In this document: positions 994 to 53,097 of the stretch, piece after piece | How the letters are laid out: the number at the start of each line of letters is the position of its first letter | How positions within the stretch are numbered: position 1 is the stretch's first letter | Source of the DNA: Dictyostelium discoideum | Lineage: Eukaryota | Assembly (NCBI GenBank): GCA_000004695.1 | Contig: CM000151.3 | Coordinates: 2,240,001-2,304,000 of the forward strand | DNA: 64,000 nucleotides | Reading direction: 5' to 3' | Position numbers and translations under genes: made by a program | Notes under the pieces: model-generated | The model's database searches: none | Told to the model about the DNA's origin: nothing | The model's input: only the letters and a program-made list of their open reading frames with translations

Positions 994-1088
994 ATTAAAT
1001 TTTCACATTCCCATAGTTTTCTTAAAAAAAAAAAAAATTAATTTTAATAGCTATTTTTAAAATTTTGAAAAAAAAAAAAAAAAAAAAA

Positions 1089-1412
1089 ATGAAAATATTA
1101 TTTAATAAATTAATTAAAACATTAATAATAGTAATAATATTATTTATTACAATTAGTAATGGTAGTGAAATGAAAGGATCATCTGCAACATCACATATAC
1201 CAGCAACAGCAACAGCATCAACAACCACAATATCAACAACAATAAATGAAATGAATGAAAAACAAAAATTATATTCACCAAGAGAAATTCATTTAGCGTT
1301 AACAAATAAAGATGATGAGATGGTAGTAACATGGATTACAAAAGATAGAATTAATCAACCAATAGTTTATTTATTTAAAGGTGATTGTAGCGTAGTAACA
1401 TCAAATATAAAC

Positions 1413-1459
<47 letters not shown>

Positions 1460-2843
1460 ACATAATTCATTTAATATATCAATTGGTAAATCAATAGTTT
1501 ATAATGGGTTAGAAGGATATGTTCATAGTGTAACATTAAATAATTTAGAATTTGGTAAAACCTATTGTTATTCAGTAGGTAGTGGTAATATATATAGAAG
1601 TGATATTAAAGGTTTAGTAAACCAACAACAGCAAAACAATAATAATAATGATAATGATAATAATGATAATGATGATAATGACGATTTATTAAGATGGAGT
1701 AAATGGATATCATTTAAAACCAAATCAAATGAAATTGATCATGTCACATTTGGAGCATTTGCAGATAGTGGTACATGGGGGGATGTGCATGAGGTAGTGG
1801 CATCAATGTGTAGGGATGAGTCTTTGACATTGGCAATTCATGGTGGCGATTTATCGTATGGATTAAAGGAAGAGGTTTGGGATACATTTGGCGACATTAT
1901 CGAGCCATTGGCATCTAGGATGCCATTCATGGTGATACCGGGTAACTGGGATGTGAAAGAGGGTGCATTGCAGCCATTTGTCAATCGTTATCCAATGCCA
2001 CTAGTTTACAAGCAACCCACAATTGAAAAGAAGCGTATATCAGCGACCGCATCAACAGCATCGATAACCACCCTCCAAACCAACCCCAACCTATACTACT
2101 CATTCAGATACACTCATGTCTATTTCATAATGCTATCATCATACGACCCATACTCAATCGGCAGTCTACAATATAAATGGCTAGTGAGCGAATTAGAGTT
2201 GGCCAATACCATGCGTCAGCAGTACCCATGGCTGATTGTAATTGCCCATAGTCCAATGTACTCCTCCTCAACCGGCCACGGAGGTAGCGACATTGGTGTG
2301 CGTACGCAATTGGAATGGTTGTACGACGTCTATAATGTCAATATCGTATTCAGCGGCCATGACCACGGGTATGAACGTACTCATCCAGTGTTGGCTGAAA
2401 AAGTATTGAAAATGAATCACAACTCTCAATATAAGAGTAAAGATGGCACAATTCACATCCTAGGTGGTACTGGTGGTGCCACCGCTGATCCTTGGTTCGA
2501 TGAACAACCAAATTGGTCCGCCGTTAGAGAATCAACTTCAGGTTACACAAAATTCATTGCTCATAAACAAACTCTTCAAGTGACCTATCTTCGTATGAAT
2601 GGTACTTTAGGTGACCATTTTCAAATTACAAATGAATTTCCAACACTAGATTCAATTAAATCCTCAAAAATTTTCTCACATAATAATGTAAATTCAAATC
2701 CTTCTGAACATACTGGTGTCTTTTTATTATTTTTCGCTTTAATAGTATTTGTTTTCCCAATTTGCGCTTATTATAAATTACCTCATTTAATTTTTAGTTC
2801 TTTGGTACCAAAACCAATGATTTCAAATAAATCAATGGTTTAA
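1089..2843 (+). CDS. Purple acid phosphatase-like metallophosphoesterase (secreted or membrane-anchored), single exon
   Basis: Track ORF 1065..2843; its first M is a non-ATG codon, and the real ATG is at 1089 (MKILFNKLIKTLIIVIILFITISNGSE, signal-peptide like). Metallophosphoesterase/PAP motifs seen in the translation: GDLSY, GNWD (a GNHE variant), AHSPMY and GHDHGYER. There is a C-terminal hydrophobic tail (possible TM or GPI signal) and in-frame poly-Asn tracts. Family assignment by motif only. Confidence 0.7.
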
Positions 2844-3538: not shown

Positions 3539-5192
3539 ATGGGTTTAGACATTGTACTTTTCCGTGCCGATAAAGGTGGAAATCCAGATCTTATTAGACA
3601 ATCACAAAAAGTTAGATATGCAAATGTTGATGCTGTTCAAGAAGTTATTGATTTAGATAAAGTTGTTAAAGAAAGTATGTTTTTTTTTTTTTTTTAATTT
3701 AATTTTTATTATTATTACAATAGAAAGAATGAATATATATATATATTAATTTTAATTTTATTTTTCATATATAAAAACAAAAAACAAAACAATAAAAATA
3801 AAAATAAAAATAATAATAATAATAATAGCTAAATATAGATTAGATAATACAAATGCTGAATATGCTAAACTTAATAAATCAGTTGCTATGAAAAAGAAAG
3901 CAGGTGAAAGTGCTGATGAAATTATTGCACAAGCTGAAGAATTAAATCAAAGTATCATTAAATTAAAAGCTGAAGTTAGCGAAGTTGAACTTTTACTTAG
4001 AAAGAAATTAAGACCAATTGGTAACATTGTACATGAATCTGTACCAATTGATAATAATGAAGTAAGTAAATAATAACAACAGAATTATCATTACCACCAT
4101 CAACATTATCATCATTATCATTATAATTATTATCATCAAGAGATTAGGATTAAATATAATAATAAAATAATTAAAATATATTTTAATTTATTTTATTTTT
4201 TTTAGGATAATAATCAAATTATTAAAACATGGGGTGAATGTAAAACATCAGAAGGTTTATTACATCATCATGAATTATTAGAGATGATTGATGGTTATGA
4301 TCCAGAAAGAGGTACATTAGTTAGTGGTCATAGATGTTATTTCTTAAAGGGTATTGGTGTTTTATTAAATCAAGCAATCATTAACTTTGCATTAATGCAT
4401 ATGACAAAGAGAGGTTCAGTACCACTTCAAACACCATTCTTTATGAATAAAGATGTTATGGCAAAAACCGCCCAATTAGAACAATTCGATGACGAACTTT
4501 ACAAAGTCACCGGTGACAATGAAGAGAAATACTTGATTGCCACCTCTGAACAACCAATCTCTGCCTTCCATCAAGATGAATGGATCGAAGAGAAAGATTT
4601 ACCAAAGAAATACGTTGGTTATTCAACTTGTTTCCGTAAAGAAGCCGGTTCACATGGTCGTGATACTTGGGGCATTTTCAGAGTACATCAATTTGAAAAG
4701 ATTGAACAATTCTGCATCACTGAACCAGAGAAGTCTTGGGATATGATGGAGGAGATGATCAATAACTCTGAACAATTCTACCAAGAGTTGGGTATTCCAT
4801 ATCGTGTCGTTAACATTGTTTCTGGTGCTCTCAATAATGCCGCCTCAAAGAAATACGATTTAGAAGGTTGGTTCCCAGGTTACAATCAATACAGAGAGTT
4901 GGTCTCTTGTTCCAATTGTACCGATTATCAATCACGTGATCTCGAAATTCGTTGTGGTATGAAGAAACAAGGTCAACAACAAAAGAAATACGTTCATATG
5001 TTAAATTCAACACTCGCTGCCACAACTCGTGTCATTTGTTGTATCCTCGAAAATTATCAAACTGAAGGTGGTATCACTGTTCCAGTTCCACTTCGTCCAT
5101 ACTTGGGTAAAGACTTTATCCCATTCGTTAAAGCTGCTCCAAAACAAAAAGCTATCCCAAAACAAAAAACAACTACTCCAGAACAAAAATAA
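3539..5192 (+). CDS. serS: Seryl-tRNA synthetase (class II, cytoplasmic), 3 exons: 3539..3674, 3829..4061, 4206..5192
   Basis: Exon 1 ([45 protein letters not shown]) matches the conserved SerRS N-terminus and is not in the ORF track as an ATG ORF. Donor GTATGT at 3675 and acceptor ..atag at 3827-3828 give phase 1. Exon 2 ends GAA|GTAAGT at 4061/4062 and exon 3 follows tttag at 4204-4205. Both junctions keep the frame of track ORFs 3888..4073 and 4284..5192. Exon 3 carries class II aaRS catalytic-core sequence ([36 protein letters not shown]). Confidence 0.85.
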
Positions 5193-11459: not shown

Positions 11460-13406
11460 ATGATGGAGCCAATTAATTATAAAAATATATCATTTAATGA
11501 TATTAAATTAGATAGTAATTGTAATAGTAGTAGTAGTAGTTCAAGTAGTAGTATTGGTAGTAATAGAAGTGGTAGTGGTGGTGGTGGTGCGATTTCAAGA
11601 AAAAGTTTTGATTGTAGTACTAGTAATGGTATTAGTGAATTTGGTGGTGATGATGGTGGTTGTGGTGGTGGTTGTGGTGGTGATATGGGTAATAATATTA
11701 ATATTAGTATTAATAAACGTCATAATTCAGTAAATAGTATTAGTAGTAATAAAAATATAAATTGTTTGTATCATGATTTAAATGATTTAATTACATATTG
11801 TAATGATTGTGAAAGAATGATATGTGTACAATGTATAGTTAGTAATGATCATTGTGGTCATAAATTCACAGAGATATCAAAACCATTTGCGTCAAGTTTA
11901 TTAGAGAAATTTCAAAAACAACAATTCCCAAATCTATTAGGTTATAGAGAAAGTGATAAACATATAATTTCAGCATTAGATTATTGTTGTAATGATGTCG
12001 AGCGCCAACATATAGAATCGGTAAAACAAGTCAAACAACATTTTCAAAAATTAATTGAATCGATTCAGTCCATTGAAAAGGATATCATTGAAAAATTACA
12101 ATCAACAGTTGAATGGAATAAAGAATTACAAAATTCAATTAAACAGCAGTTTGAAAGAGATTCAAAGAAAATCGATTCGATAATTTCAAAACATCATTCG
12201 AAAATCAATGGTTATCAAATTGACCAAATTTACGATTTTGAAACTAAACAACATATTGAAATTATTAAAGATTCAGATCAATGTACACCACTATTAAAAA
12301 GAAGATTGGAGATTTTAAATAATAATTCCTCTTCAAAAATTAAATTTAAAAATGATTTACTTACATTTAATATGGAAATATTTGACGAGATTAAAGAAAA
12401 AGTATTAAATTTCACAAAAATTGAAAATGTAGAATATAAAGATTTAAAATCAACTAAACAACATTTAATGTTAAATAAGAAGATTCAACCTTATAATATT
12501 GATTATTATTTATGTCATGGTGAGCCAATTCCATTAGGTGAGACATCGGTTGCATTGGATTCAAAATATTCTTCAAAATCAATTTGTATTCAGTCAAATA
12601 AAAGTATTGATAGATTGTTATTATGTAATGGTTTTAAATTATCATTGAGTGAGTTTAAAATACCAGATTCAATTAAAACATTGAGAATTGGTGATATTAA
12701 ATACTCTTGGGATGCAAATTCAATACCATCAAGTGTAACAGAGTTACATCTATGTGATGGTTTTAATCATATTCTTTCGAGTGGTATGATACCAAATACA
12801 GTTACAAAATTATATTTATATGATATTAAACAACCTTTAACTATGGGTTCAATACCATCAAGTGTAAATGAATTACATATGTGCGATGGATTCAGTTTAC
12901 AATTGGCTCCATTCGTTTTACCAAATTCTATAACTTCATTAAGTATAGGTGAAATTAAATATTCAATTCTACCAGAATTTATACCATCAAGTGTAAAAAA
13001 GATACGTTTATATAGTAGTTTTAATCATCCAATTATTCCTCAAAATATTTCAGAATCTGTTGAAACTTTAGTATTATTTAATATTAAATTAAATCTTGAA
13101 AATAAAGTAATACCAAAATCAATTAAAGAATTACATTTATGTGATGGATTTGAACAACAAATTCAACCATTCTCAATTGAAAATGGTGGAAAATTAGAGA
13201 AATTGGTATTATGTGATATTAAAGAAAAACTATTAAAAAATTCAATACCAAATTCTGTTAAAAAATTAATTTTCTTAGGTTATAATCATCAATTAGAAAA
13301 TGGTATTTTAAATGATTCTTTAGAATTAATTTATTTTAGTAAAAGTTTTACTCATCCAATTGATAATAATTTAATTCCAAATAATATTGAAATTATAAAA
13401 AAATAA
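11460..13406 (+). CDS. B-box zinc finger plus FNIP-repeat protein, single exon
   Basis: Track ORF, 648 aa. The N-terminal half has a Cys/His B-box-like cluster (CLYHDLNDLITYCNDCERMICVQCIVSNDHCGHKF). The C-terminal half is repeated ~22-aa units with IPSSV(T/N)ELHLCDGFN... and IPNSV.KL.F, the Dictyostelium FNIP-repeat signature. Confidence 0.8.
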   Translation: MMEPINYKNISFNDIKLDSNCNSSSSSSSSSIGSNRSGSGGGGAISRKSFDCSTSNGISEFGGDDGGCGGGCGGDMGNNINISINKRHNSVNSISSNKNINCLYHDLNDLITYCNDCERMICVQCIVSNDHCGHKFTEISKPFASSLLEKFQKQQFPNLLGYRESDKHIISALDYCCNDVERQHIESVKQVKQHFQKLIESIQSIEKDIIEKLQSTVEWNKELQNSIKQQFERDSKKIDSIISKHHSKINGYQIDQIYDFETKQHIEIIKDSDQCTPLLKRRLEILNNNSSSKIKFKNDLLTFNMEIFDEIKEKVLNFTKIENVEYKDLKSTKQHLMLNKKIQPYNIDYYLCHGEPIPLGETSVALDSKYSSKSICIQSNKSIDRLLLCNGFKLSLSEFKIPDSIKTLRIGDIKYSWDANSIPSSVTELHLCDGFNHILSSGMIPNTVTKLYLYDIKQPLTMGSIPSSVNELHMCDGFSLQLAPFVLPNSITSLSIGEIKYSILPEFIPSSVKKIRLYSSFNHPIIPQNISESVETLVLFNIKLNLENKVIPKSIKELHLCDGFEQQIQPFSIENGGKLEKLVLCDIKEKLLKNSIPNSVKKLIFLGYNHQLENGILNDSLELIYFSKSFTHPIDNNLIPNNIEIIKK

Positions 13407-13642: not shown

Positions 13643-15760
<2,118 letters not shown>

Positions 15761-15995
15761 TTTAAAATAAATGAAAAAATAAAATGAAAAAATAAAAAAA
15801 AAAAAAAAAAAAAAAGGGAAAAAAACAAAAAAAAAGAAAAAAAAAAACAAAAAAAAAGCGAAAAAACTGAAAAAAAAAATTGGAAAAAACTGAGAGTTTT
15901 TAAATAAGATGTTTATTTGTGGCAATATTATTACATTTATAAATAATATATTATTGGTGGTTTAATATATAAATTATAATTTAATTTTTGTAATT

Positions 15996-16334
15996 TTAAT
16001 TACAACCACAATTGTTTGAACCTCCAGTTAAAATGGAACCAACTCCATGTAAAACAGAACCAACAATTACACCAGTACCAGTAAGAACACCACCAACGAG
16101 ACCACCGACTGCACCGAGTAATCCTCCATTTCCACAACCACCGCATTGAATTGAATTCATTGATTGTAAAGAAGATGACGAGTTTGATAATGATGATAAA
16201 TTATTTGATTTTGAAATTGATTTAACATTACCAATTGATGAGATTGAAGCTATTTTAATAATAAAATTTAGAATTATTATTTATTTATTTTTTTTTTTTT
16301 AATTAATTTCTTTTTACATACCTAAAATTGTCAT
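15996..16334 (-). CDS. hssA/2C/7E-family (HssA/B-like) small Gly/Ser-rich protein, copy A; exons 16334..16322 and 16249..15996
   Basis: The 13-nt first exon is ATG ACA ATT TTA G|GTATGT (MTIL+G). Exon 2 follows aaatag and reads [84 protein letters not shown]. From memory this closely resembles known Dictyostelium HssA/B-like proteins; I ran no search. Confidence 0.7.
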
Positions 16335-16416
16335 TTTTATATTTGTTTAATTTTTATTTGTTTGATATACTAATTTTTTTTTTTTTTTTCTTATTAATAC
16401 TTTTTTTTTTATATGT

Positions 16417-16472
<56 letters not shown>

Positions 16473-16947
16473 AACCAAAATGGTAGATTAATTATTGATA
16501 TTCATATTTACAAGATTCTATTATAATATATGTATACTTATGAAAATAATCATATGAATAGGGTAACATGTTTTTTTTAAAGGTTATATAAAGTTAACTT
16601 TTATTAGAAAAATCACAATCACAATCACAATCACAATCACAATAACAATGTAAATTTTTTAAAAAAAATTAATTGTATTCTAATTAGGAAACAGTTTTTA
16701 TACCATTTTAGAACATTTCTTATTTTTTAAAAAAAAAACAATACAATCTAATGACAGTTTTGTTAAAAGGTCAAAAATAATACCCCATTCGTTTTTTTTT
16801 TTTTTTTTTTAAACCCCCTATTAATAAATAAAAAATCAATTAAAAATTATAGATTCAAACAAGGATTGATTGTTTTATATAGAATTAATACATGAATATA
16901 TCATTTTGATGAGAAGTTAATAATTCTTAATATTTTAATAGTATTTT

Positions 16948-16990
<43 letters not shown>

Positions 16991-17062
16991 AATAAAAATA
17001 GTTTATATTTTTTTCATAATTTATTATTATAAAACAAACAAATAAACATTTAAAAATTACAA
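16335..17062. promoter_or_regulatory. Inferred bidirectional promoter region between divergent hssl copies A(-) and B(+). Equivalent regions are 18245..18984 (C/D) and 20211..20936 (E/F)
   Basis: This is inferred only from the head-to-head gene arrangement. The C/D and E/F spacers share a conserved ~240-bp core (ttaaggaaataatgggttaaattttaagagaaaataacacaatcacaattta...ttatcgaaaatgataaacacaactttttt). The A/B spacer instead carries a (CACAAT)5 microsatellite at ~16617..16646. Confidence 0.3.
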
Positions 17063-17416
17063 ATGACAATCTTAGGTAATATTTTAAATAATATATTTAA
17101 ATTTTAAATATATATTTAAAAAAACAATATTAATAAATTTTAAAAATTTCAAAATAATTAAATAGCTTCAATCTCTTCAATTGGTAATGTTAAATCAATT
17201 TCAAAATCAAATAATGTATCATTATCAAATTCATCATCTTCTTTACAATCAATGAATTCAATTCAATGCGGTGGTTGTGGAAATGGAGGATTACTCGGTG
17301 CAGTCGGTGGTCTCGTTGGTGGTGTTCTTACTGGTACTGGTGTAATTGTTGGTTCTGTTTTACATGGAGTTGGTTCCATTTTAACTGGAGGCTCAAATAA
17401 TTGTGGTTGTAATTAA
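17063..17416 (+). CDS. hssA/2C/7E-family protein, copy B; exons 17063..17075 and 17166..17416
   Basis: Same two-exon architecture as copy A (ATG ACA ATC TTA G|GTAATA, acceptor aaatag). Product is 87 aa: [88 protein letters not shown]. It is divergently oriented to copy A and convergent with copy C. Confidence 0.7.
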
Positions 17417-17905
17417 AATTACAAAAATTAAATTATTTATATTTTAAATTAACCAAAAATAAAACCCAATTTTATAATTTGTAAAATAAAAAAAAAAAAA
17501 AAAAAAAAAAATATTAAGTAATACCTTTTTTAAAATTATTATTTAAATTATTATATTTCAAAGTAGTTCTTTTTTTTAAAAAAATAATAAAAGAGTTGTA
17601 ACTTTAAAAAATTATTGGTTGGTCTTTTAAATATAAAAAAAAAAAAAAAAAAAAAATTCCAAATTAAATTATTCCTGGGTAATGCAAATTTTAATAATTT
17701 AAAAAAAATTAAAAAAATAAAAAAAATTATTCAATCAAAAGGATTAATCATAAAAAAAATGAATTTTTATCAATTATTTCAACCTAATGTAATTATCTCA
17801 TTTATTACTTTTTCTTTTTTTTTTTTTCTTTTTTTTTTTACATTTACAAATAATTAAATTTTGTTTATTATAATTTATTTAATATATATTTATATTTTTG
17901 TAATT

Positions 17906-18244
17906 TTAATTACAACCACAATTGTTTGAACCTCCAGTTAAAATGGAACCGACTCCGTGTAAAACAGAACCAACGATTACACCAGTACCAACAAGAACTC
18001 CACCAACGAGACCACCAACTCCACCGAGTAATCCTCCATTTCCACAACCACCACCACATTGAATTGAATTCATTGATTGTAAAGAAGATGATGAATTTGA
18101 TAATGATGATAAATTATTTGATTTTGAAATTGATTTAACATTACCAATTGATGAGATTGAACCTATTTAATTGAAATTTTTAATTAATTACAATTTTTTT
18201 TTTTTTATATTTTTTTTTTTTTTTTTACATACCTAAGATGGCAT
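17906..18244 (-). pseudogene. hssA/2C/7E-family copy C; exon 2 (18162..17906) intact, first exon frameshifted
   Basis: Exon 2 is full length and in frame. The first exon, however, reads ATG CCA TCT TAG|GTATGT. Relative to the family consensus acctaagattgtcat, copy C has acctaagatggcat: a 1-nt deletion plus a substitution. This puts TAG in frame after 3 codons. It is either a pseudogene or a sequencing error. Confidence 0.5.
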
Positions 18245-18342
18245 TTTATTTATTAAGGTTTGGTTATATTTTGGTTTGGATAATTATAAATTTTTAATTT
18301 TTTCAAAATGATACTTTTTTTTTTTTATATAAAAACTTTTAA

Positions 18343-18385
<43 letters not shown>

Positions 18386-18984
18386 ATTATGTATTTGTTT
18401 TTATTAAATAATTGCAAAAAAATATAAGATACCCTACATTATCATTTATATAAAAAATTATATCTTAGATCATTATGATTTATTTTTTAAGGAAATAATG
18501 GGTTAAATTTTAAGAGAAAATAACACAATCACAATTTAAATTATTATAAAATTTATAGATTATTAAATATACAATTCAAATTAAGAAATAACACTTTACC
18601 ATTCTTGGATGATTCTTTTAAATCTTTTATATTCACTATTTAAGAATATCTATCTATATACAAAATTATCGAAAATGATAAACACAACTTTTTTAAACCC
18701 CCCAAAAAAAAAAAAAAAAAAAAAAAAAATAATAAAAAAATAATAAAAAAAAAAAAAATAAAAAATAAAAAATAAAACAAAGATTGAGTGATAAATTCAG
18801 ATTTAATGTATACATCTACAACGATATTATGATTAAAAGTTAAAGCAATACATAAATTTATTACTATTTAATTTTATTTATTTTTCAATTATTTTATTAA
18901 AAAAAAAAATTATAAAAACTTTTTTTTTTTTTTTTTTTTTTATATTCCAAAACAAACAATTAATACTAAAAAATAATATAAAAA

Positions 18985-19336
18985 ATGACAATCTTAGGTA
19001 TGCTTTATATTTTGTAAAAAAAAAATTAATTATTAAATACTTATTTTTCAAAATTTACTATAATAATAATTATTAAATAGGTTCAATCTCATCAATTGGT
19101 AATGTTAAATCAATTTCAAAATCAAATAATTTATCATCACTATCAAATTCATCATCTTCTTTACAATCAATGAATTCAATTCAATGTGGCGGTGGTTGTG
19201 GAAATGGAGGATTACTCGGTGCAGTTGGTGGTCTCGTTGGTGGTGTTCTTACTGGTACTGGTGTAATTGTTGGTTCTGTTTTACATGGAGTTGGTTCCAT
19301 TTTAACTGGAGGTCCAAACAATTGTGGCTGTAATTA
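18985..19336 (+). CDS. hssA/2C/7E-family protein, copy D; exons 18985..18997 and 19080..19336
   Basis: First exon ATG ACA ATC TTA G|GTATGC, second exon after aaatag. Product: [90 protein letters not shown]. Confidence 0.7.
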
Positions 19337-19873
19337 AAATTACAAAATTAAATTATAATTTATATATTAAACCAACCAAAAATTTAACCTCAATTTTATA
19401 ATTTGTAAAATAAAAAAAAATAAAAAATAGAAATATTTAATAATACTTTTTTAAAATTATTTTTAATTATTTAAATTTCAAAGCAGTTCTTTATTTAAAA
19501 AAAACTAATAAAAGAGTTGTAACTTTAAAATTATAAGTTTGTCTTTTAATTAAAAAAAAAAAACCACAAAAAAAAAAAAAAAAAAAATTCCAAATTAATC
19601 CTAGGTAATGAAAATTTAAATAATAATAATTTAAAAAAAAATTAAAACATAAAAAAATCATTCAATCAAAAAGATTAATCATAAAGAAAATGAATTTTTA
19701 TCAATAACCTCATTAATTACTCAAAATACTTTTTTTTTTTTTTTTTTTTTTTATCAATAACCTCATTAATTACTCAAAGCTTTTTTTTTTTTTTTTTTTT
19801 TTTTTTACATTTACAAATAATTAAACTTTGTTTATTTTTAATTTATTTAATATATATTTATAATTTTTTAATT

Positions 19874-20210
19874 TTAATTACAACCACAATTGTTTGAACC
19901 TCCAGTTAAAATGGAACCGACTCCGTGTAAAACAGAACCAACAATTACACCAGTACCAACAAGAACTCCACCAACGAGACCACCAACTCCACCGAGTAAT
20001 CCTCCATTTCCACAACCACCACCACATTGAATTGAATTCATTGATTGTAAAGAAGATGATGAATTTGATAATGATGATAAATTATTTGATTTTGAAATTA
20101 ATTTAACATTACCAATTGAAGAGATTGAACCTATTTAATAATAAAATTTATTAATACAATTTTTTTTTTTTTTATTTTTTATTTATTTTTTACATACCTA
20201 AGATTGTCAT
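19874..20210 (-). CDS. hssA/2C/7E-family protein, copy E; exons 20210..20198 and 20130..19874
   Basis: Same architecture (donor GTATGT, acceptor aaatag), and exon 2 is intact. Position was cross-checked against antisense track ORF 19894..20106. That ORF is near-identical to ORF 17926..18138, which reflects the ~1968-bp repeat period. Confidence 0.7.
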
Positions 20211-20697
20211 TTTATTTGTTTTGTTTTGTTTTGTTTTTATTTTGTTTTGTATATTATTAATATTTTTTTTTTTTTCTTATTTATACTTTTTTTTTATTTA
20301 TAAAAACTTTAAATTTTTTGAAAAAAAAAAAAAAAAACTATATTTTTATTTTTAATAATAACTAAACAATTGTAAAAAATATAAGATACCCTACATTTTC
20401 ATTTATTTAAAAAATTGTATCTTAGATCAGTATGATTTATTTATTAAGGAAATAATAGGTTAAATTTTAAGAGAAAATAACACAATCACAATTTATTATA
20501 AAATTTATAGATTATTAAATATACAATTCAAATTAAGAAATAACACTTTACCATTCTTGGATGATTCTTTTAAATCTTTTATATTCACTATTTAAGAATA
20601 TCTATCTATATACAAAATTATCGAAAATGATAAACACAACTTTTTTAAACCCCCAAAAAAAAAAAAAAAAAAAAAAAATAAAAATAATAAAAAAAAA

Positions 20698-20728
<31 letters not shown>

Positions 20729-20936
20729 AAACAAAGATTGAGTGATACATTGAGATTTAATATACATCTACAACTATATTATGATTAGAAGTTAAACCAA
20801 TACATAAATTTAATATTATTTAATATTATTTATTTTTCAATTATTTTATTAAAAAAAAAAAATTATAAATACTTTTTTTTTTTTTTTTTTTTTATTCCAA
20901 AACAAACAAATAAATAATACTAAATAATAATAAAAA

Positions 20937-21314
20937 ATGACAATCTTAGGTATGTTTTATTTTTGTAAAAAAAAATAAATAAAAAAATAAAATAAAAAAA
21001 AAATTTAATTATTAAATACTTATTTTAAAATTTACTATAATAACAATTATTAAATAGGTTCAATCTCATCAATTGGTAATGTTAAGTCAATTACAAAATC
21101 AAATAATTTATCATCATTATCAAATTCATCATCTTCTACACAATCAATGAATTCAATTCAATGTGGTGGTGGTTGTGGAAATGGAGGATTACTCGGTGGA
21201 GTTGGTGGTCTTGTTGGTGGTGTTCTTGTTGGTACTGGTGTAATCATTGGTTCTGTTTTACACGGAGTCGGTTCCATTTTAACTGGAGGTTCAAACAATT
21301 GTGGTTGTAATTAA
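20937..21314 (+). CDS. hssA/2C/7E-family protein, copy F; exons 20937..20949 and 21058..21314
   Basis: First exon ATG ACA ATC TTA G|GTATGT. Exon 2 reads ...[53 protein letters not shown]. The 3' 180 nt of this gene reappear as an isolated fragment at 25137..25316. Confidence 0.7.
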
Positions 21315-21700
21315 AATTACAAACTTAAATTATAATTAAAATATTAAACCAACCAAAAATAAAACCCAATTTTTTAATTTGTAAAATAAAAAAAAAAAAA
21401 AATAGAATTATTTAATTATACTTTTTTTAAAATTATTTTTTAAATTTATTATTTTTCAAAGTTGTTCTTTATTTAAAAAATTAATAAGAGTTGTAACTTT
21501 AAATTACAAGTTTGTCTTTTAAATATAAAAAAAAAAAATCACAAAAAAAAAAAATTCCAAATTAAATTATCCCTGGATAAGAAAATTTAAATAATAATAA
21601 ATTTAAAAAAAAATAAAAAAATAAAAAAAATCATTCAATCAAAAAGATTAATCATAAAGAAAATGAATTTTTATCAAAAACCTCATTAATTACTCAAAAT

Positions 21701-21759
<59 letters not shown>

Positions 21760-21978
21760 TTATGCTTTTGAATAGAAATCTCCGTTTGGCTGTCCTCGAT
21801 ATGATTATAATCTTCCATCACTCTCGATTAATATATCAAATTATTGTTTTCAAAAGATAATAAATTAACTACATCAATAAAATATATTAACCCCTTTTTA
21901 AAAAGGGGGTCCAAAAAACAAAAACAAAAATTTATATTAAATTTTATATTTGCACACAAATAAAAATAACACAGCTGT

Positions 21979-22010
<32 letters not shown>

Positions 22011-23031
22011 CAGACCCTGTTTGATAACGTAGTGATAAATACTTTTTTATTTATTTATTTTTTTATTAATATTCCAAAACGAACAAACAAATAATACTAT
22101 TAAATAATATCAAAAAATGACAATCTTAGGTATGCTTTATTTTTTGTAAAAAAAAAAAAAAAAAAAAAAATATTTAAATTATTTGTTTTTTAAAAATTTA
22201 ATAATAATTTTATATAGGTTTAATTTCATCAATTAGTAATGTTAAATCAATTTCGAAATCAAATAATTTATCATCATTATCAAATTCATTATCTTCTTTA
22301 CAATCAATGAATTCAATTGAACGCCGTGGCGGCATTAGCATTAGCAATCCAGGATTTCTCGGTGGAATTGGTCGTAACCCTGGTGGTATTCTTGTTGAAA
22401 CTTATGGAAGCTTGGAGGGGGTTCCATTTTAACTGGAGGTTCAAACAATTGTGGTTGTAATTAAAATTACAAAAATTAAATTATAATTTAAATATTAAAC
22501 CAACCAAAAATAAATCCCAATTTTACAATTTGTAAATGAAATAAAAAAAGAGTAATCTTATCTAAATTTTTTTTTTCTAAAATTCAAATAATTATCTTTA
22601 AAATAAAATAAAAATGTAATAAATAAAAATAAAATAAAATAAAATAAAAATAGTATAAAATAAAAATAAAAAAAAAAAATAAAAATAAAATTAAAATAAA
22701 ATAAAAATAAAATAAAATAAAATAATATAAAAAGAATCAATGGTATGTGATAGTGGAGGTAAGTCAGTGCTGTTCTCACTAATGGTGAATTTATTAAAAT
22801 ATTTTTTGTTCAATCGTTGGTGCATTAACAAAATTATTTATATTCTATCTTTTAAACTAAAATTCAAATATTTAAAAATAAAAAATTAAAAATAAAAAAT
22901 TAAAAATAAAAATAAAAAAAATTCCTTTGCCTGAGGGAGGAGATTGATAATTAATTATTACTAATAATAATAATAATAATAATAAATCTTTATTTTTTGG
23001 AAAATGAAAAAAAAAAAAAAAATTGTGATGG
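21135..23031. repeat. Copy 1 of a ~1.9 kb direct segmental duplication; copy 2 is 25137..27040 (offset 4002 bp)
   Basis: The two copies are near-identical (track ORFs 22558..22779 and 26560..26781 translate identically). I saw only one substitution (aattcctttgcc vs aattcatttgcc) and one repeat-length difference. Copy 1 runs directly into the N gap. Confidence 0.8.
22117..22432 (+). pseudogene. Diverged, Cys-less hssA/2C/7E-family copy G (exons 22117..22129, 22218..22432); duplicated at 26119..26434
   Basis: It keeps the family first exon and the N-terminal [29 protein letters not shown]. The conserved QCGGCGNGG block is replaced by [24 protein letters not shown] frame change then gives an early stop (..GSLEGVPF*). 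The downstream gttccattttaactggaggttcaaacaattgtggttgtaattaa is still recognisable but out of frame. A near-identical second copy lies 4002 bp downstream. Confidence 0.45.
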
Positions 23032-23131
23032 NNNNNNNNNNNNNNNNNNNNNNNNNNNNNNNNNNNNNNNNNNNNNNNNNNNNNNNNNNNNNNNNNNNNN
23101 NNNNNNNNNNNNNNNNNNNNNNNNNNNNNNN
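23032..23131. other. Assembly gap (100 N)
   Basis: A run of exactly 100 n characters. Confidence 1.
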
Positions 23132-25136
23132 TGATGTGTTGATGTCAAATGACTAGTAATCTATAAAAATCAAAGTCCGGTTCAAATTTAAAGTCATTTT
23201 AAAAATTTAAATATTTTTCGCTAAAAATTTAAAAAAAATCGATTTTTCAAAAATGGATCGGGGTTTTTATATTTAAAAATCATTCATAAGTAAATTGTTC
23301 CTATTTCCTATAAATTTTCTATAAATTTGAGAATGTTTAAAAACATATACGTTTTTAAATCCTACGAGTAATATTCCTTTTATTTTAATGAAAAGTTATC
23401 ACCTACGAAAAAACACCAAAAAACAGCGATTTTTTCAGAATTTTTTTAGGGGTCTATTTGACCCGCCAGACTACGCGCGTTGTTTCGAGGCTGTGTCAGT
23501 ACATCTGGAAAGCTTACTAGGAACCGTCGGTCGAGTGAACTAAATAGGAGTAATATTTATGAAAGTTACAGTGAAATTTTGCACTTTTTTACCCCCAAAA
23601 ATAGGGGGTACTTGAGAAAGTTTTTTGTAAACCAATTTTTTTTTTAACTTGCCATTTAAAAAGTAAGACATACAAAAGATAGCCCTCATTTTCAGCTATA
23701 TTATATCTAAAAATCATTGGAATAAAAAAATAGTACATATTTTTTTCGAATTTTTTTCGAACCTCCAAATTGAAATTTCTCACATTAATTTTTTTTTTTT
23801 TTATATGAAAAATTTTTTGGCGCCAAAATTTTAATAAGTTTTGATCGTGACCCCCTAGGCAAAAACGGAAAAATACATTAACATCGCCAAGAATATAACT
23901 AATTACAGTTACCTCACGGTCGACTCACCATAAAACCACTGTAATCTGTAAATGAGGATCCAATGTCATATTTTTACGAACTTCCGAGTTAAATAAAAAA
24001 TTGTGTTACTTGGTTGACTCTGCCGTGAGGTAACAGTAAGTGTAAAATTAAAATATCTATCTTTTAAAAAAACTTTGATTGATAAGGAACGACACCATTT
24101 AAATTTTTCGCTAAAATACACCAATTTTTGAATTTATTGGAAAATTTTCACTTTTCGTCCCCAGTCTTTATATTCACTATATGCACATAAGCTATTTGGT
24201 AAAATGTGTCAGAATATCTCTCATTGAGTCTAGTTGCTACTTTTATGGGTCTACATTCACTCAATTTCGTTAATTAAAATATCTATAAAGTTCCTTGAAA
24301 AATCCACGAAAAAACACTGTTTTTGGTGTGTCAACTTGGCGAATTTTTTAGGGGGTCCAGTACCCCCCTTTAAAATACGATCTTGTGTCAGATTATCCCA
24401 AATGCTCTGGAAAGCTTACTAGGAACCGTCGGTCGAGTGAACACGAGGGACTTTTTACTTAGCCTCCTTACACCAAAAAAAACTTGGGAAAAATGGTGAT
24501 TTTTCACTTACCACCCGCCAAAGATTCGATTGAATATTTAATAAAAAAAAATTGAGTGCAAAAAGCGAAATACAGAAGTTAGATACACGATAGATCATTA
24601 ACATACTCAAAAAGAATTAAATTTTAACGAGACGATTTACGCGCAGAATTTTTTTCGATTTTCCGAAAAAAAATTTCTCCATATAAAAAAATTTTTGAAA
24701 ATTTTTTAAAATTTTTTTTTCAGTAATTTTAATTTTTGGTACCTTAATGACCCCGTAGATAAACCGGATCAAGTGATTTCAACTTAGAATTTAATTCTAC
24801 GTCTACCATTACTCATTGGTCGAGTCACCGGTAAACCATAGATTTTTATTTTTCCTCAGATTCAGGCATCGATTCTCGTTGTTGACAAGCCTCAAAATTT
24901 ACTATATCTCAATATTAATTAAAATTAACAAATACAAAAAATAAAGCTCTTTTATATGTATATTGTGGAAGTGGCTATATTCGCTCAATTTTTTTTTATT
25001 AAATATTTTTCATTTTTGCCGGAAAAAAAAAAAAAAAAAAAATTTTCAACTTTCGTCCGAAGTTCCTAAATTTTTTTCTCACTTTAAAATTTAAAAATCC
25101 AATCATACAAAAACATCATAAAAGGGTGAGGATGCT
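23132..25136. repeat. GC-richer ~2 kb block made of ~0.9 kb diverged tandem repeats; probable degenerate repetitive or transposable-element remnant
   Basis: Its base composition differs clearly from the flanks. The 36-mer ctggaaagcttactaggaaccgtcggtcgagtgaac occurs at 23505..23540 and again at 24407..24442 (period 902). Other segments recur with the same period: aaatttttcgctaaaa at ~23210 and ~24100, and ttttcac(t)tttcgtcc at ~24130 and ~25040. Related inverted motifs are present (cggtcgactcacc and ggtcgagtcaccgg). There is no long ORF. I cannot assign it to a named element family. Confidence 0.5.
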
Positions 25137-25316
25137 TCTTTACAATCAATGAATTCAATTCAATGTGGTGGTGGTTGTGGAAATGGAGGATTACTCGGTG
25201 GAGTTGGTGGTCTTGTTGGTGGTGTTCTTGTTGGTACTGGTGTAATCATTGGTTCTGTTTTACACGGAGTCGGTTCCATTTTAACTGGAGGTTCAAACAA
25301 TTGTGGTTGTAATTAA
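25137..25316 (+). pseudogene. 3' fragment of an hssA/2C/7E gene, identical to the end of copy F, with no start or first exon
   Basis: 25137..25316 is identical to 21135..21314 (..[16 protein letters not shown]...NNCGCN*). The sequence upstream of 25137 is unrelated, so this is the truncated 5' edge of the duplicated segment. Confidence 0.6.
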
Positions 25317-25702
25317 AATTACAAACTTAAATTATAATTAAAATATTAAACCAACCAAAAATAAAACCCAATTTTTTAATTTGTAAAATAAAAAAAAAAA
25401 AAAATAGAATTATTTAATTATACTTTTTTTAAAATTATTTTTTAAATTTATTATTTTTCAAAGTTGTTCTTTATTTAAAAAATTAATAAGAGTTGTAACT
25501 TTAAATTACAAGTTTGTCTTTTAAATATAAAAAAAAAAAATCACAAAAAAAAAAAATTCCAAATTAAATTATCCCTGGATAAGAAAATTTAAATAATAAT
25601 AAATTTAAAAAAAAATAAAAAAATAAAAAAAATCATTCAATCAAAAAGATTAATCATAAAGAAAATGAATTTTTATCAAAAACCTCATTAATTACTCAAA
25701 AT

Positions 25703-25761
<59 letters not shown>

Positions 25762-25980
25762 TTATGCTTTTGAATAGAAATCTCCGTTTGGCTGTCCTCG
25801 ATATGATTATAATCTTCCATCACTCTCGATTAATATATCAAATTATTGTTTTCAAAAGATAATAAATTAACTACATCAATAAAATATATTAACCCCTTTT
25901 TAAAAAGGGGGTCCAAAAAACAAAAACAAAAATTTATATTAAATTTTATATTTGCACACAAATAAAAATAACACAGCTGT

Positions 25981-26012
<32 letters not shown>

Positions 26013-27354
26013 CAGACCCTGTTTGATAACGTAGTGATAAATACTTTTTTATTTATTTATTTTTTTATTAATATTCCAAAACGAACAAACAAATAATACT
26101 ATTAAATAATATCAAAAAATGACAATCTTAGGTATGCTTTATTTTTTGTAAAAAAAAAAAAAAAAAAAAAAATATTTAAATTATTTGTTTTTTAAAAATT
26201 TAATAATAATTTTATATAGGTTTAATTTCATCAATTAGTAATGTTAAATCAATTTCGAAATCAAATAATTTATCATCATTATCAAATTCATTATCTTCTT
26301 TACAATCAATGAATTCAATTGAACGCCGTGGCGGCATTAGCATTAGCAATCCAGGATTTCTCGGTGGAATTGGTCGTAACCCTGGTGGTATTCTTGTTGA
26401 AACTTATGGAAGCTTGGAGGGGGTTCCATTTTAACTGGAGGTTCAAACAATTGTGGTTGTAATTAAAATTACAAAAATTAAATTATAATTTAAATATTAA
26501 ACCAACCAAAAATAAATCCCAATTTTACAATTTGTAAATGAAATAAAAAAAGAGTAATCTTATCTAAATTTTTTTTTTCTAAAATTCAAATAATTATCTT
26601 TAAAATAAAATAAAAATGTAATAAATAAAAATAAAATAAAATAAAATAAAAATAGTATAAAATAAAAATAAAAAAAAAAAATAAAAATAAAATTAAAATA
26701 AAATAAAAATAAAATAAAATAAAATAATATAAAAAGAATCAATGGTATGTGATAGTGGAGGTAAGTCAGTGCTGTTCTCACTAATGGTGAATTTATTAAA
26801 ATATTTTTTGTTCAATCGTTGGTGCATTAACAAAATTATTTATATTCTATCTTTTAAACTAAAATTCAAATATTTAAAAATAAAAAATTAAAAATAAAAA
26901 ATTAAAAATAAAAATAAAAAAAATTCATTTGCCTGAGGGAGGAGATTGATAATTAATTATTAATAATAATAATAATAATAATAATAAATCTTTATTTTTT
27001 GGAAAATGAAAAAAAAAAAAAAAATTGTGATGGTGCGAATTCGATAACAGAGAGCACAAAATGCTGATTTTTTTTTTTTTTTTTATTATTTATAAAATTT
27101 TAAAAATAAATCAACAATAATGTAATTTTAGTTTTATATCATTGGTGCGTTTTGGTGGGTCACATTTACAAAGAGTGGGTTCACAGAAAAAAAAAAAAAA
27201 AAAATTGGTTGCATAATTAATAGTTGATCATCAAATTGATTATTATAACAATACAATTTTTTCACCCACCAATAAATCATTTTCAAAAAAAAAATTATTT
27301 TTATCCAAACCAAATATAAAAAACAAACAAAAATAAAAATAAAAAAAAAAAAAT

Positions 27355-44316: not shown

Positions 44317-48192
<3,876 letters not shown>

Positions 48193-48540: not shown

Positions 48541-49837
48541 TTAATTATTATCATTTTGATATTTTCTTTCTAACATCTCCATAAATTGATCGAATTCATC
48601 TTCAGTCACAGTTGAGAAATCATTTGATGGAATTACATTTAAATTTGTTAAAAGTGATGTTATCTTTCTTTCATTTTCTTCTTTTCTTTCTTTTGCAAAT
48701 AAAAATTCATCCTTTACACGATTATTATTATTATTATTATTATTATTTAAATCTAATAATTGTAATTTTGATGGATGAATTGAAGTTCCAGTATTTTCAG
48801 AATTTGTAGTTGTTGTTGTTGTAGTTGTAGTTGTTGTTGTTGAGGGTAATAATAATTTTTGAGCTGAATCATTTTCTTGTTGCTTTGTATTATTGTTATT
48901 ATTATTTTTCAATATTGATAATTCATTATTAATATTAATTAATTGTTGTTCACAAGAGTTTTCAATGATTAACTTTTCAACGAATACAGGTTTAGTTTGA
49001 CCAATACGATGAGAACGTTTAATTGATTGTTGTTCCTTTGAAGCGAACCAAATTGGATCAACAAAGATGATATGATTTGCAGCGGTAATATTTAAACCAT
49101 ATGCAGCCAAATCTGAATTCATAATGATAATATTAAATTCTGAATCTTTAGTTTGAAAATCCGATACGATATTAGCTCTCTGTTTCAAAGTTAACTCTGT
49201 CATATAAATTTTATAAACTCTTGATAACTCTGGTATCCTACTAACTGTCCAAACTATGTCCTTTAAAGTATCATTGAATGCACTAAAAACTATACACTTT
49301 TCACCGATTTCAACAATTTCTTTTAATCTCATTATTAAATATTCTAATTTTGCACAATCAATTAATTTTGGTTCTTTATAAATTTCAACTTGTAAATTAT
49401 TTTGATTATTTTGATTATTTTGATTATTTTGATTAATATCTTCAGTATTCATTTGATCTTGATCTTGTTGTCCATCTTGTAATTGTTGTTCTTGTTGTTC
49501 TTTTCTTTCTCTTTCTTTAGCTAACCTTTCTTCTTTTTCAACTTGTTCTTCTTCTAATCTTTTTCTTTCTTTTTCTTCTTCTTCCTCTGTTAGTTTAAAT
49601 TGTACTCTTGGTTTTGATTTTAAAATTGGTGATGTTGTTGGTGATGATGATAATGATGATGATGATGATGATTGTGTATTACTGCAACTAGTAGAAGTGG
49701 TTGTTGTTGTTGAAGATACTAAAGTTCTTAATTTTGGTAAAGTTGTATCTGAATTTGAAATAGATAATGTTGTTGAATTTTGTTGTATAAAAGGTGTAAT
49801 TTCAGTGGTTAAAGTTGTATTTGAATCATCATCATCA

Positions 49838-49915
<78 letters not shown>

Positions 49916-51297
49916 GTTATGATTGGATCAGGTTTATAAAAATAAAAATTTGAAAAATCAAAAGTTTCAAATTTAAAATTATTTTGATTATTATTATTTT
50001 GATTATTATTATTATTATTAGTTTGTTGTGAAATTGATAATTTTAAACTAACCAATTCATAATATTTATAAATTTGTAATAATTTTAATTTATCAGATCT
50101 TGGTATAATTTGATCAGATTTTAATAAAGCAGTTTCAATATTTTCACGAACATCTTTTCTTTCTTTTTCTTTTAAAGGTTGACAATTGAAACAAGCTTTT
50201 CTTAAATTTGTAAATGCTTGTAATGCCAATGGCTGATTATCGGCATGAGTGAATGAATCCTTGCCAGTGTATTGTGATGCTAAAAGATTCACTTGAATTA
50301 GTGTTACCAATTCATTGTATTTCAATTTCTCATTATCATTCATCTCCAATTGAACCACTTTAACAGACAATGGAGGTAAATCAATTTGTTCTTGAATTTC
50401 ATTATGAGGAGTTTTCACTGCTATTCGATTCATAATCTCACAAATTCTTTCAATACCTTGAATTTTGAAATTATTAACTGGATTTGAAATCAATGCATTA
50501 AAATAACCAACAGATTGATTAAATGGTTGAATTGAAAGAAAACTACAAATTGATTTAAAATTAATTAATTCAGTTTGTAATACTGAACTTGAAATTGGTG
50601 TACCACTACAAACCCATTTCCTCTCTGACATTAACCATGAACTATTATCTGATAAATTAGTATTACCATTACCAATTACATGACCTTCATCAATTATAAT
50701 TCTTAACCAATTAATTTGAAATATTGATTTAATTGAAATATCAATAAATTCACTATCTTCACCACTATTATTACCACTACCACTACCACTATTACTTGCA
50801 CCAGCACCAGCACCAACATATTGGTCATTATCAATTGAAGAATATTCATCATCATTATCATTGAATAAAGTTGTTGGATTAAATTGTTTTAAATTACTTA
50901 ATCTCCAATTTGTAATTAATACAACATCATATTTGATTAATTCTGATGGTGGTGGTATTAATTTATCAGTATTTTCAATAACTAAATATTTGATTTTACT
51001 ATGTAACATAATTTCAAATTGCCATTGCTTTATGATTTGATTTGGTACAATTAATAATGTACCAGATGAACAAATTAAATTTCTAAATTTAATGATTGAA
51101 CTTGACTTTGTTGTAATTCTTCTCTCTGCTGATGATTGTCTAATCAATTGAAATCTTGTATTTGCCAATTGATCAATATCATCTCTAATAGATTGTGGTA
51201 TTCTATAATCTGATCCAAATGGGTATCCACTAATTTTTAATTTTCTCTTTAAAATTGAGTATAGTGATGGTATTTTTGTTGTCTTTGTTATTGTCAT

Positions 51298-51330
<33 letters not shown>

Positions 51331-52140
51331 TGTTGTAACTATTGGATTCAATGGTGGATAAATTGGATTACTAACTGGTGATTTAGATTGTGATCCTAAT
51401 GTACTCAATATCAATGCTATACAAATTATAGTTTTACCTGTACCCATACCTTGACATAAAATTCCACCTCTAACATCGTCACATTTTGGAAATTCTTCCA
51501 TACTTTTAATTTTCATTCTTTTCTTATCAATTACATTTTCAATTTCAATTTCTTTTTCAATATTATTATCATCATTATCATTATTATTATTGATAACTGT
51601 CCAAAGTGGATTTGGAAATTGTTTTGGACAAGTTTCACGTTCTAACATTTTTCTAACTGATAATTTTTGAAATTTAAATAATTTCTTTGACTCATGTAAA
51701 AAGTAAGGATCTTGAATTAATCTAATTTCATCATCAGTTGTACCTTCACCTGGTGATGGTATTTGATCTAAAATATATTCAAAACTATATTTACCCTTTT
51801 CATTATCTGGTACACCTTCAAATTTTTGTTTTTCAAATTTTAATCTTTTCTCTTTATTTAATACTTTTTTAGTTTTTTTACTTGGTTTCTCTTCTCTAGT
51901 TTTCTTTACTTTTACTATTGATAATTGTTTTGATGCTGCTGATGATTCTGATGATTCTGATGATTCTGGTTGTTGTAATTGTATTTGTATTTGTGTTTGT
52001 GATTGTGGTTGTGGTTGTTGTTGCTGTTGCTGTGTTTGTGGTGGCGGTGGTTGTTGTGGTTGTGGTTGTTGCTGTGTTTGTGGTGGTGTTTCAGTATTTG
52101 TTGTTTTCATTTTTTTTGTTCTTTTTTGTTGTGGTTGTGG

Positions 52141-52232
<92 letters not shown>

Positions 52233-52967
52233 GAATATCATATTCTTCCTGCTCGACCTCCTCGATCTCCTCTTCATGATTGTCATGTGATGGTGGTAAT
52301 AATAATAATTGTTGTTGTTGTCTTGGTAATGGTAATGATGATTTTGTTTTAAAAATTTGATTAGAATAATTTTGTTTTCTTTTTTTATGACTTGATAATG
52401 CTTTTTTTAAAGTATCAACATCATTATTAACTTTATCAATCATTAAACTACTAATTCTTTGTACTATAGATTTATCTGAAACAATAATAGACTGTTCATC
52501 AACTGTTATACCATCATCCAATATCTTTCTAATATTCCAAATTTGAAATATCATTCTAACTCTATTTATATATTCTAATAATGTCATTTTATTATTATTA
52601 TCATCATTATCATTATCATCTTCATCATTTTTATTATTATTATTATTATTATTGTTGTTTATTTGATTTTTAATTTCATTTAATAATGTAAATAAATCAT
52701 TCTCAATTTTAACTTTAATAGTTTCAGTTTCTTCCAATATTGTTGTTATTAAAGTTGGTGGTGTAACACCTATATCTTCATTGATAGAGTCATTCTCTTG
52801 ATTGAATAAACAAAGGTAATCTCTGGTGTTTGAAAATTTAAATGGACAATTTGGTTGATTTAAAAAATATATTGGTACTCTAATAGTATCATATAGAAAT
52901 ATATATGATTCAGGATAGGTCATCAACGATTCATGATATTTTAATAAAACTTCTGTTACTGAATTAC

Positions 52968-53048
<81 letters not shown>

Positions 53049-53097
53049 TATTACTATTATTATTACTATTACTATTATTATTATCAGTATAATCCAT
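48541..53097 (-). CDS. SNF2-family DEAD/H-box ATPase (large, low-complexity-rich), single exon
   Basis: Track ORF 48541..53133 begins at a GTG. The first ATG in frame is at 53097 (MDYTDNNN...). Helicase motifs seen: I GILCQGMGTGKTIICIALI; II LRIIIDEGHVIGNGN (DEGH); and the C-terminal HELICc block (EKCIVFSAFNDTLKDI...NIIIMNSDLAAYGLNITAANHIIFVDPIWFASKEQQSIKRSHRIGQTKPVFVEKLII). It carries long poly-Gln, poly-Asn and poly-Asp tracts. Confidence 0.8.

Follow-up and report, generated by a model that had tools for sequence, protein, structure and literature searches.

Within a 64,000-nucleotide (nt) stretch of Dictyostelium discoideum chromosome 2 (GenBank assembly GCA_000004695.1, contig CM000151.3, forward-strand positions 2,240,001 to 2,304,000; hereafter the window), short two-exon genes for small peptides are lined up in alternating orientation between positions 15996 and 22432. 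This raises the question of what these genes are, how such an array arose and whether it acts through its peptides. A sequence-only reading had described the interval as a tandem array of ~2 kb units, each holding an inverted pair of hssA/2C/7E-family peptide genes. We find that the seven-gene region is the published Group 1 sigN cluster of D. discoideum, consisting of sigN25, sigN5, sigN2, sigN4, sigN1, sigN3 and the diverged sigN105 (copies A to G, in this order). The explanation developed below, taken as a whole with its parts on identity, origin and working, is in our judgement very probably correct. The structure is real but ordinary: the gene cluster, the gene structure, the origin by duplication of an inverted pair, the expression and the knock-out were all already published in 2008 (Vicente, Galardi-Castilla, Escalante & Sastre, BMC Microbiol 8:1; PMC2257962).

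PMC2257962 places six Group 1 sigN genes and sigN105 in a 7-kb region of chromosome 2. The copies found here agree with that description in number, order, orientation, protein and intron lengths, identity to sigN1, the presence of a neighbouring sigN105 with a product of 75 amino acids (aa), and an extent of ~6.3-7 kb. Protein lengths match gene by gene (see the feature table), and the intron lengths in Table 1 of PMC2257962 equal ours minus 1, except for sigN2, because they are given there as end minus start. The sigN2 figure is 70 nt in both cases, which may reflect the re-sequencing of its exon 1 by those authors. Compared with copy E (sigN1), copy C differs at 1 residue once its exon 1 is hypothetically restored, D and F at 4 each, A at 4 plus one gap and B at 5 plus two gaps; the resulting identities for C, D, F, A and B (~99, 95.5, 95.5, 94-95 and 92-94%) follow the published ones (99, 95, 95, 95 and 94%). 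The product of G is exactly identical to a strain AX4 protein (P0001, DDB_G0273025/DDB_G0274097). Finally, PMC2257962 describes sigN1-sigN3 and sigN2-sigN4 as adjacent inverted pairs with similar intergenic regions, and the promoters of sigN5 and sigN25 as resembling none. Our E-F and C-D pairs correspond to these two pairs, and their spacers are likewise similar to each other and unlike the sigN5/sigN25 spacer. We see no biological difference from the published cluster; the sequence analysed here carries the reference version of sigN2 exon 1.

The canonical gene model is intact in five copies (A, B, D, E and F), not in six as the sequence-only reading had it. In each of these, a 13-nt exon 1, ATGACAAT(C/T)TTAG, is followed by GT, the introns run from GT to AG, and exon 2 measures 251-257 nt. 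Of the architecture originally proposed for every copy, the 13-nt first exon (present also in G, and not in C, which has 12 nt in the reference sequence) and the second exon of ~250 nt hold, while the introns span 67-108 nt rather than ~85-100 nt. The predicted peptides of ~88 aa, S/N-rich at first and then G/V/L-rich with fixed Cys motifs, are borne out by canonical products of 87-89 aa that carry QCGG(G)CGNGG...NNCGCN. In copy C, exon 1 (18232-18244, minus strand) reads ATGCCATCTTAG where ATGACAATCTTAG is expected, and is therefore one base short, with an in-frame TAG. Because PMC2257962 re-sequenced this very spot and modified the position of sigN2 exon 1, the defect is most likely an error of the reference sequence and not the mark of a pseudogene. 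Copy G is altered in another way: the central part of its exon 2 has diverged strongly, indels of +6 and -16 nt shift the frame, and its open reading frame (ORF) stops at 75 aa without the Cys motifs, with a relic of the old C-terminal coding sequence running on untranslated to 22464. The interval limits coincide with the stop codon of A (15996) and the stop of the 75-aa ORF of G (22432), and between them lie seven copies, one fewer than the eight first counted.

The assignment to the hssA/2C/7E family is supported by Pfam. PF05710 ('Coiled', HssA/B-related) was matched by each of the four products examined: A, D, F and G score 77, 73.9, 69 and 35 bits, respectively, against a gathering score of 21.4 bits. 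The alignments span the full model or most of it; the expectation value (E) is 2.6e-8 for G and between 2e-21 and 6.5e-19 for the other three. The gene structure, too, is the one described for this family (PMC6198379, PMC2257962): a 13-nt coding first exon, a single short intron and a second exon of ~200-270 nt. Kin et al. (2018, PMC6198379) put the number of such genes at almost 100. The products lie below the 120-aa size limit of the family, and one of 89 aa contains 21 Gly, 17 Ser and 4 Cys. Searches of very large sequence libraries returned 3 matches by a word-indexed method and 6 by exhaustive HMMER, too few for a deep alignment, and the three named relatives are D. discoideum, D. dimigraforme and D. 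purpureum. QC(G)GGC and CGCN motifs are common to the cluster products and to two relatives (P0002, P0005); a third (P0006) has QCGC and CGCN, and a fourth (P0003) has QCGSGC and ends in GCY. Related Dictyostelium species thus keep the Cys motifs, with 4/4 Cys in P0002, P0005 and P0006 and 3/4 in P0003. A cystine-knot protein, the former dictyBase label of sigN1, was considered and rejected because six Cys are needed and only four are present, a remark also made in PMC2257962. A sequence search of the PDB gave no meaningful relative (best E 0.085).

The wider family (PF05710) shares with the cluster its domain, its gene structure and its small Ser/Gly/Cys-rich products, and its named carriers are all Dictyostelium. 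Expression differs, since hssA is expressed in pstA cells, 2C and 7E are inducible by cyclic AMP and not cell-type-specific, and one clade is found in late cup cells only (PMC6198379). Closer at hand, the Group 2 sigN genes (sigN6-9, 11, 12 and 14, at ~0.82 Mb of chromosome 2) belong to the same family, have the 13-nt exon 1, are arranged as tandemly duplicated inverted pairs and, like Group 1, are expressed in prestalk cells, in their case at 10-14 h; their proteins are 60-70% identical to sigN1. The two groups differ in that the divergent spacers of Group 2 are palindromic with paired GBF sites, whereas the Group 1 spacers seen here are not palindromic, and in the effect of antibodies, which dissolved mounds when directed at Group 2 and failed to do so when directed at Group 1.

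How regular is the array? The window is AT-rich in the manner of Dictyostelium (GC 15-29%), and within it the copies run in the order A-, B+, C-, D+, E-, F+, G+, exactly as the sequence-only reading had stated. They form three units of ~1.9-2.0 kb, each a divergent pair (A/B, C/D, E/F), followed by a lone G. Direct repeats are spaced 1910-1921 bp apart between units 1 and 2 and 1968-1977 bp between units 2 and 3. A lag-identity scan of 15900-21900 placed all twelve best lags within 1910-1977 (z 4.4-8.2), and the same scan gave no such peak in three control regions. The periodic structure is real, far beyond chance. Tandem Repeats Finder, with 500 as the longest period covered, found nothing. 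The inverted arms within the array measure 219-291 nt and are 94-98% complementary, and the antisense ORFs noticed earlier at 17926-18138 and 19894-20106 are indeed present, their translations differing by 1 aa. Using tblastn over the 64 kb, we detected family pieces outside the interval only in F' and G', two segments beyond an assembly gap, giving nine family segments in the window.

Such periodicity could in principle come, partly or wholly, from an assembly that laid down one or two real units repeatedly in AT-rich DNA. A run of N followed by a 1.9-kb block repeating the pre-gap sequence at 99.8% would fit this explanation, as would at least one local reference defect, that in C exon 1 (PMC2257962), but the units themselves speak against it. 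Units 1-3 are distinct, with overall identities of 66-83%: between units 2 and 3, identity is 83% for the unit as a whole and 83-100% across most of the divergent spacer, while unit 1 resembles them in its exons and 3' spacer and not in its promoter spacer, which is unalignable; intron lengths differ as well. PMC2257962 moreover used the genes singly (a sigN2 promoter reporter, over-expression of sigN4, RNA interference (RNAi) from sigN3 exon 2), sequenced part of the region anew, and removed a stretch of 6.3 kb, the loss of which was confirmed by reverse-transcription PCR and PCR, so that the published knock-out already implies six plus one genes at 15996-22432. We consider an assembly origin of the periodicity extremely improbable. 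For units 1-3, misassembly is rejected on account of their sequence differences and separate published use; an artefact might concern F' and G' only.

The array is instead readily explained by tandem duplication of an inverted pair, the origin proposed in PMC2257962 for these genes and the conclusion to which the sequence-only reading also came. The non-coding sequence retains a signal of strand type that fits this origin. Introns group by orientation, with 75-86% identity among A, C and E and 70-74% among D, F and G, against a shuffled background of 62 +/- 2%. The 3' flanks of B, D and F are 84-87% identical among themselves and 71-74% identical to that of G, and the 5' flanks of D and F are 89% identical. 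The E-F and C-D spacers are 83-100% identical over most of their core and 57-63% identical at their ATG-proximal ends. The F-G spacer is composite. Its first 447 bp (21315-21761) correspond to the usual 3' spacer, with 84.6% identity to 19338-19811 and 82.5% to 17417-17839, and its end (22035-22116) is ~80% identical to the proximal promoters of D and F (18912-18985 and 20865-20936). This structure therefore points to G as the plus-type gene of a fourth unit that lost its minus-type partner and most of its promoter spacer. A 273-bp unique segment (21762-22034) stands where that partner and most of the promoter spacer would be expected; it includes, near 21890-21912, a palindrome-like stretch, AAAAAGGGGGTCC / CCCCTTTTT. 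As we reconstruct it from the sequence, an ancestral head-to-head pair would have been duplicated in tandem at least three times, and the fourth unit would have kept only its plus-strand gene, which later decayed into sigN105.

The coding exons conflict with this grouping of introns and flanks. Among the informative sites of exon 2, none favours the split ACE|BDF. The split ABD|CEF is backed by five nucleotide sites, all within codons 52-75, and AB|CDEF by three sites together with one codon indel. Between A and B, exon 2 is 97.6% identical, with a synonymous divergence of 0.088, although identity is 62% in the introns and 67% in the 5' flanks, equal or close to that of shuffled sequence (62 +/- 2%, maximum 68%). 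Exon-limited gene conversion between inverted and direct neighbours is supported as the best reading of this pattern, and it is preferred because selection on the peptide cannot hold synonymous sites. Coding exons, and not introns or promoters, may thus have been homogenised repeatedly between direct and inverted neighbours, with purifying selection having kept the peptide. Concerted evolution or gene conversion had been suggested before, and we retain that conclusion on the strength of the conflict between exon and intron/flank phylogenies. The argument then offered for it, namely that coding differences between copies are mostly whole-codon indels, was wrong: such indels account for only 2/27 variable codons (codon 23 in B, codon 41 in A and B), and the rest are mostly substitutions. 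PMC2257962 does not discuss exon-limited conversion, an origin of sigN105 from a fourth unit, or the repeat past the gap described below.

Could the copies be decaying pseudogenes or neutral duplicates that look alike through gene conversion alone? The decay of G, the broken state of C in this sequence and the lack of a phenotype after deletion of Group 1, Group 2 or both are what this explanation would lead one to expect. It fits less well with the regulated, cell-type-specific expression and promoter activity shown in PMC2257962, with the retention of the Cys motifs in related Dictyostelium species, or with the ratio of non-synonymous to synonymous divergence (dN/dS), which lies at 0.06-0.48 in 15/15 pairs of the six copies A-F, though synonymous changes are not in excess by raw count in three of these pairs (synonymous versus non-synonymous: C-F 3 versus 4, D-F 8 versus 8, E-F 5 versus 5). 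All indels among the six copies keep the frame. The dN/dS pattern, although the counts are small, is consistent and favours constraint on the peptide, and we regard neutral decay as very improbable.

A related question is whether the array acts mainly at the RNA level, with the convergent copies (B/C and D/E) yielding, by read-through, hairpin or sense-antisense double-stranded RNA (dsRNA) for RNAi, or with the transcripts themselves being active, and the peptides being secondary. The 3' flanks of B and C indeed form an inverted repeat that reaches ~100 nt past each stop (arms 17270-17522/17800-18052, 83% complementary), and across the convergent spacers such arms of 253-291 nt, 83-94% complementary, are only 277-510 nt apart. 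It has also been reported that hssA is active as RNA (Kin et al., PMC6198379), and the deletion results could be read in the same way. If only RNA mattered, however, a dN/dS well below 1 in every pair and the preservation of frame by all indels would be unexpected, and PMC2257962 found a 12-kDa product on over-expression and vesicle staining with antibodies. A predominantly RNA-based role seems quite unlikely.

In the published work, growing cells do not express the Group 1 sigN genes. Expression rises at 10-12 h of development, in cells of the prestalk and anterior-like types, and depends in part on SrfA, being reduced in srfA- cells; each ~730-bp divergent spacer is a non-palindromic promoter for both flanking genes (PMC2257962). 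With the sigN2 upstream spacer driving lacZ, scattered mound cells, prestalk tips and anterior-like cells were stained, and the antibodies mark small vesicles (PMC2257962). In 3/3 divergent spacers we find (CACAAT)n followed, 169-200 nt later, by TTTAAACCCCC, with order and strand unchanged from spacer to spacer. Elsewhere in the 64 kb, (CACAAT)n is absent on both strands and TTTAAACCCCC is not matched again in full; its 8-nt core, AAACCCCC, is present at one additional site, close to position 400 on the minus strand. These two elements are candidate shared regulatory landmarks. The strict GBF G-box KGKGKGK is not enriched: the C-D and E-F spacers contain one match each and the A-B spacer lacks it, compared with 0.8 per kb in the window at large. 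The peptides themselves have a Ser/Asn-rich first half with two N-x-S/T sequons and a hydrophobic, glycine-rich second half, whose mean hydropathy is 1.3-1.8 over residues 43-79, between CGG(G)C and CGC. It seems reasonable to suggest that this C-terminal half is the functional part. Our best inference is that the peptides are redundant secreted or membrane/matrix-associated prestalk products.

Several observations weigh against the account given so far. None of the five intact proteins (A, B, D, E and F) has an exactly matching entry in the protein collection searched, and their identity rests on length, intron size, order, orientation and the pattern of percentage identities, not on a residue-by-residue comparison. 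Copy C is not intact in this sequence, and its integrity depends on the re-sequencing note in PMC2257962. Both the dN/dS values and the conversion pattern derive from small counts, 3-19 differences per pair. At the level of the protein, AlphaFold2, run on the exon-2 peptide with 9 sequences, gave no confident fold (predicted local distance difference test, pLDDT, 44; predicted template modelling score, pTM, 0.20), and the N-terminus shows no signal peptide-like stretch (hydropathy 0.5). On the functional side, no phenotype resulted from over-expression, from RNAi or from deleting either group or the two together, and the Group 1 antibodies were without effect and had been validated only on an over-expressing strain (PMC2257962); a frame-shifted hssA construct still works, pointing to RNA (PMC6198379). 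The lack of a deletion phenotype is presumably due to redundancy.

Downstream of the cluster, beyond the assembly gap, a 1899-bp segment (21133-23031) that holds the 3' part of F, the whole of G and 570 bp beyond recurs at 25135-27033 with 99.8% identity, 4 mismatches and no gaps. Two of the four mismatches fall in codon 32, which reads ACA in F and TTA in F', as in every other copy. The transposon-like segment between the gap and F' has no ORF longer than 64 aa, matches no Rfam family, occurs only once in the window and has no tRNA gene close by. Inside it, a 37-nt exact direct repeat, TCTGGAAAGCTTACTAGGAACCGTCGGTCGAGTGAAC, lies at 23504-23540 and 24406-24442, 902 nt apart, pointing to a single element present in two incomplete copies, either tandem or nested. 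The published Group 1 knock-out spans 2,242,478-2,248,753 in assembly v2.5 (PMC2257962), and the 752.6-kb duplication of strains Ax3/Ax4 starts at 2,249,563 (PMC2643946 Table 2), 7,085 bp past the knock-out start. Counted from the stop codon of A, this start falls within the N run, so that in the reference layout the left end of this duplication directly adjoins the cluster. Possible explanations for F' and G' are an older local duplication cut by a mobile element, a true tandem-duplication junction, or scaffold redundancy. Two more far-reaching proposals are that the convergent inverted copies may be a developmental source of hairpin or antisense dsRNA and small RNAs, and that the junction between F' and the transposon-like DNA (25134/25135) may be the breakpoint of the 750-kb Ax3/Ax4 duplication, inside sigN3, perhaps favoured by the recombination-prone repeat array. 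We consider these readings unlikely; if true, the dsRNA and small-RNA source would tie in with the reported action of hssA as RNA.

The remaining genes recognised in the window flank the cluster on both sides (feature table). A Dicer-like RNase III gene and an SNF2 gene sit ~22-30 kb downstream. Just upstream, (TAA)n/(TTA)n microsatellites at 14310-14456 and 14899-15074 form an inverted pair, up to 100% complementary over ~125 nt, inside a 338-aa low-complexity ORF (14302-15318, minus strand).

Feature table. Gene copies, spacers and neighbouring features in window coordinates; product and intron lengths are given as found here / as listed in Table 1 of PMC2257962, with the product of copy C, in brackets, assuming a restored exon 1.
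Feature	Positions	Strand	Product (aa)	Intron (nt)	Remarks
Purple acid phosphatase	1065-2843				
Class II aminoacyl-tRNA synthetase core	4284-5192				
B-box/FNIP-repeat protein	11460-13406				
Copy A, sigN25	15996-16334	-	88 / 88	72 / 71	exon 1 13 nt, exon 2 254 nt; PF05710 E 2e-21
A-B divergent spacer, 728 bp	16335-17062				(CACAAT)5 at 16614-16643, TTTAAACCCCC at 16808-16818; otherwise unalignable with C-D and E-F (also PMC2257962)
Copy B, sigN5	17063-17416	+	87 / 87	90 / 89	one Ser codon and one Gly codon fewer
B-C convergent spacer, 489 bp	17417-17905				75-85% identical to other 3' spacers
Copy C, sigN2	17906-18244	-	(89) / 89	70 / 70	exon 2 intact, 257 nt; exon 1 12 nt with in-frame TAG
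C-D divergent spacer, 740 bp	18245-18984				(CACAAT)2 at 18524-18535, TTTAAACCCCCC at 18692-18702; read towards C, the sigN2 promoter
Copy D, sigN4	18985-19337	+	89 / 89	83 / 82	
D-E convergent spacer, 536 bp	19338-19873				arms 19060-19350/19861-20151, 291 nt, 94% complementary
Copy E, sigN1	19874-20210	-	89 / 89	67 / 66	founding cDNA of the 2008 study
E-F divergent spacer, 726 bp	20211-20936				(CACAAT)2 at 20481-20492, TTTAAACCCCC at 20644-20654
Copy F, sigN3	20937-21314	+	89 / 89	108 / 107	
F-G spacer	21315-22116				3'-spacer homology, then a unique part, then promoter homology
Copy G, sigN105 (DDB_G0273025/DDB_G0274097)	22117-22432	+	75 / 75	88 / 87	PF05710 E 2.6e-8
Assembly gap, 100 N	23032-23131				published coordinates place the beginning of the Ax3/Ax4 duplication of chromosome 2 here
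Transposon-like segment, 2.0 kb	23132-25134				GC-richer, ORF-less
F', 3' 182 nt of a sigN3-type copy	25135-25316	+			cut off at the junction with transposon-like DNA
G', second identical sigN105	26119-26434	+			G = G' over 371 nt
Protein with two RNase III domains (Dicer-like)	44317-47520	-			
Large SNF2-family helicase	48541-53133	-			

What this analysis adds to the published account of the Group 1 sigN genes is small. For users of the genome, the reference sequence carries a defect at sigN2 exon 1, and copy-number-aware analyses of sigN3 and sigN105 are affected by the gap and the repeat that border the Ax3/Ax4 duplication. For the biology of the family, the additions are the evidence that points to exon-limited gene conversion, two candidate promoter landmarks common to the three divergent spacers, and signs of purifying selection that would act at the level of the peptide, in a family for which a role as RNA has been proposed.

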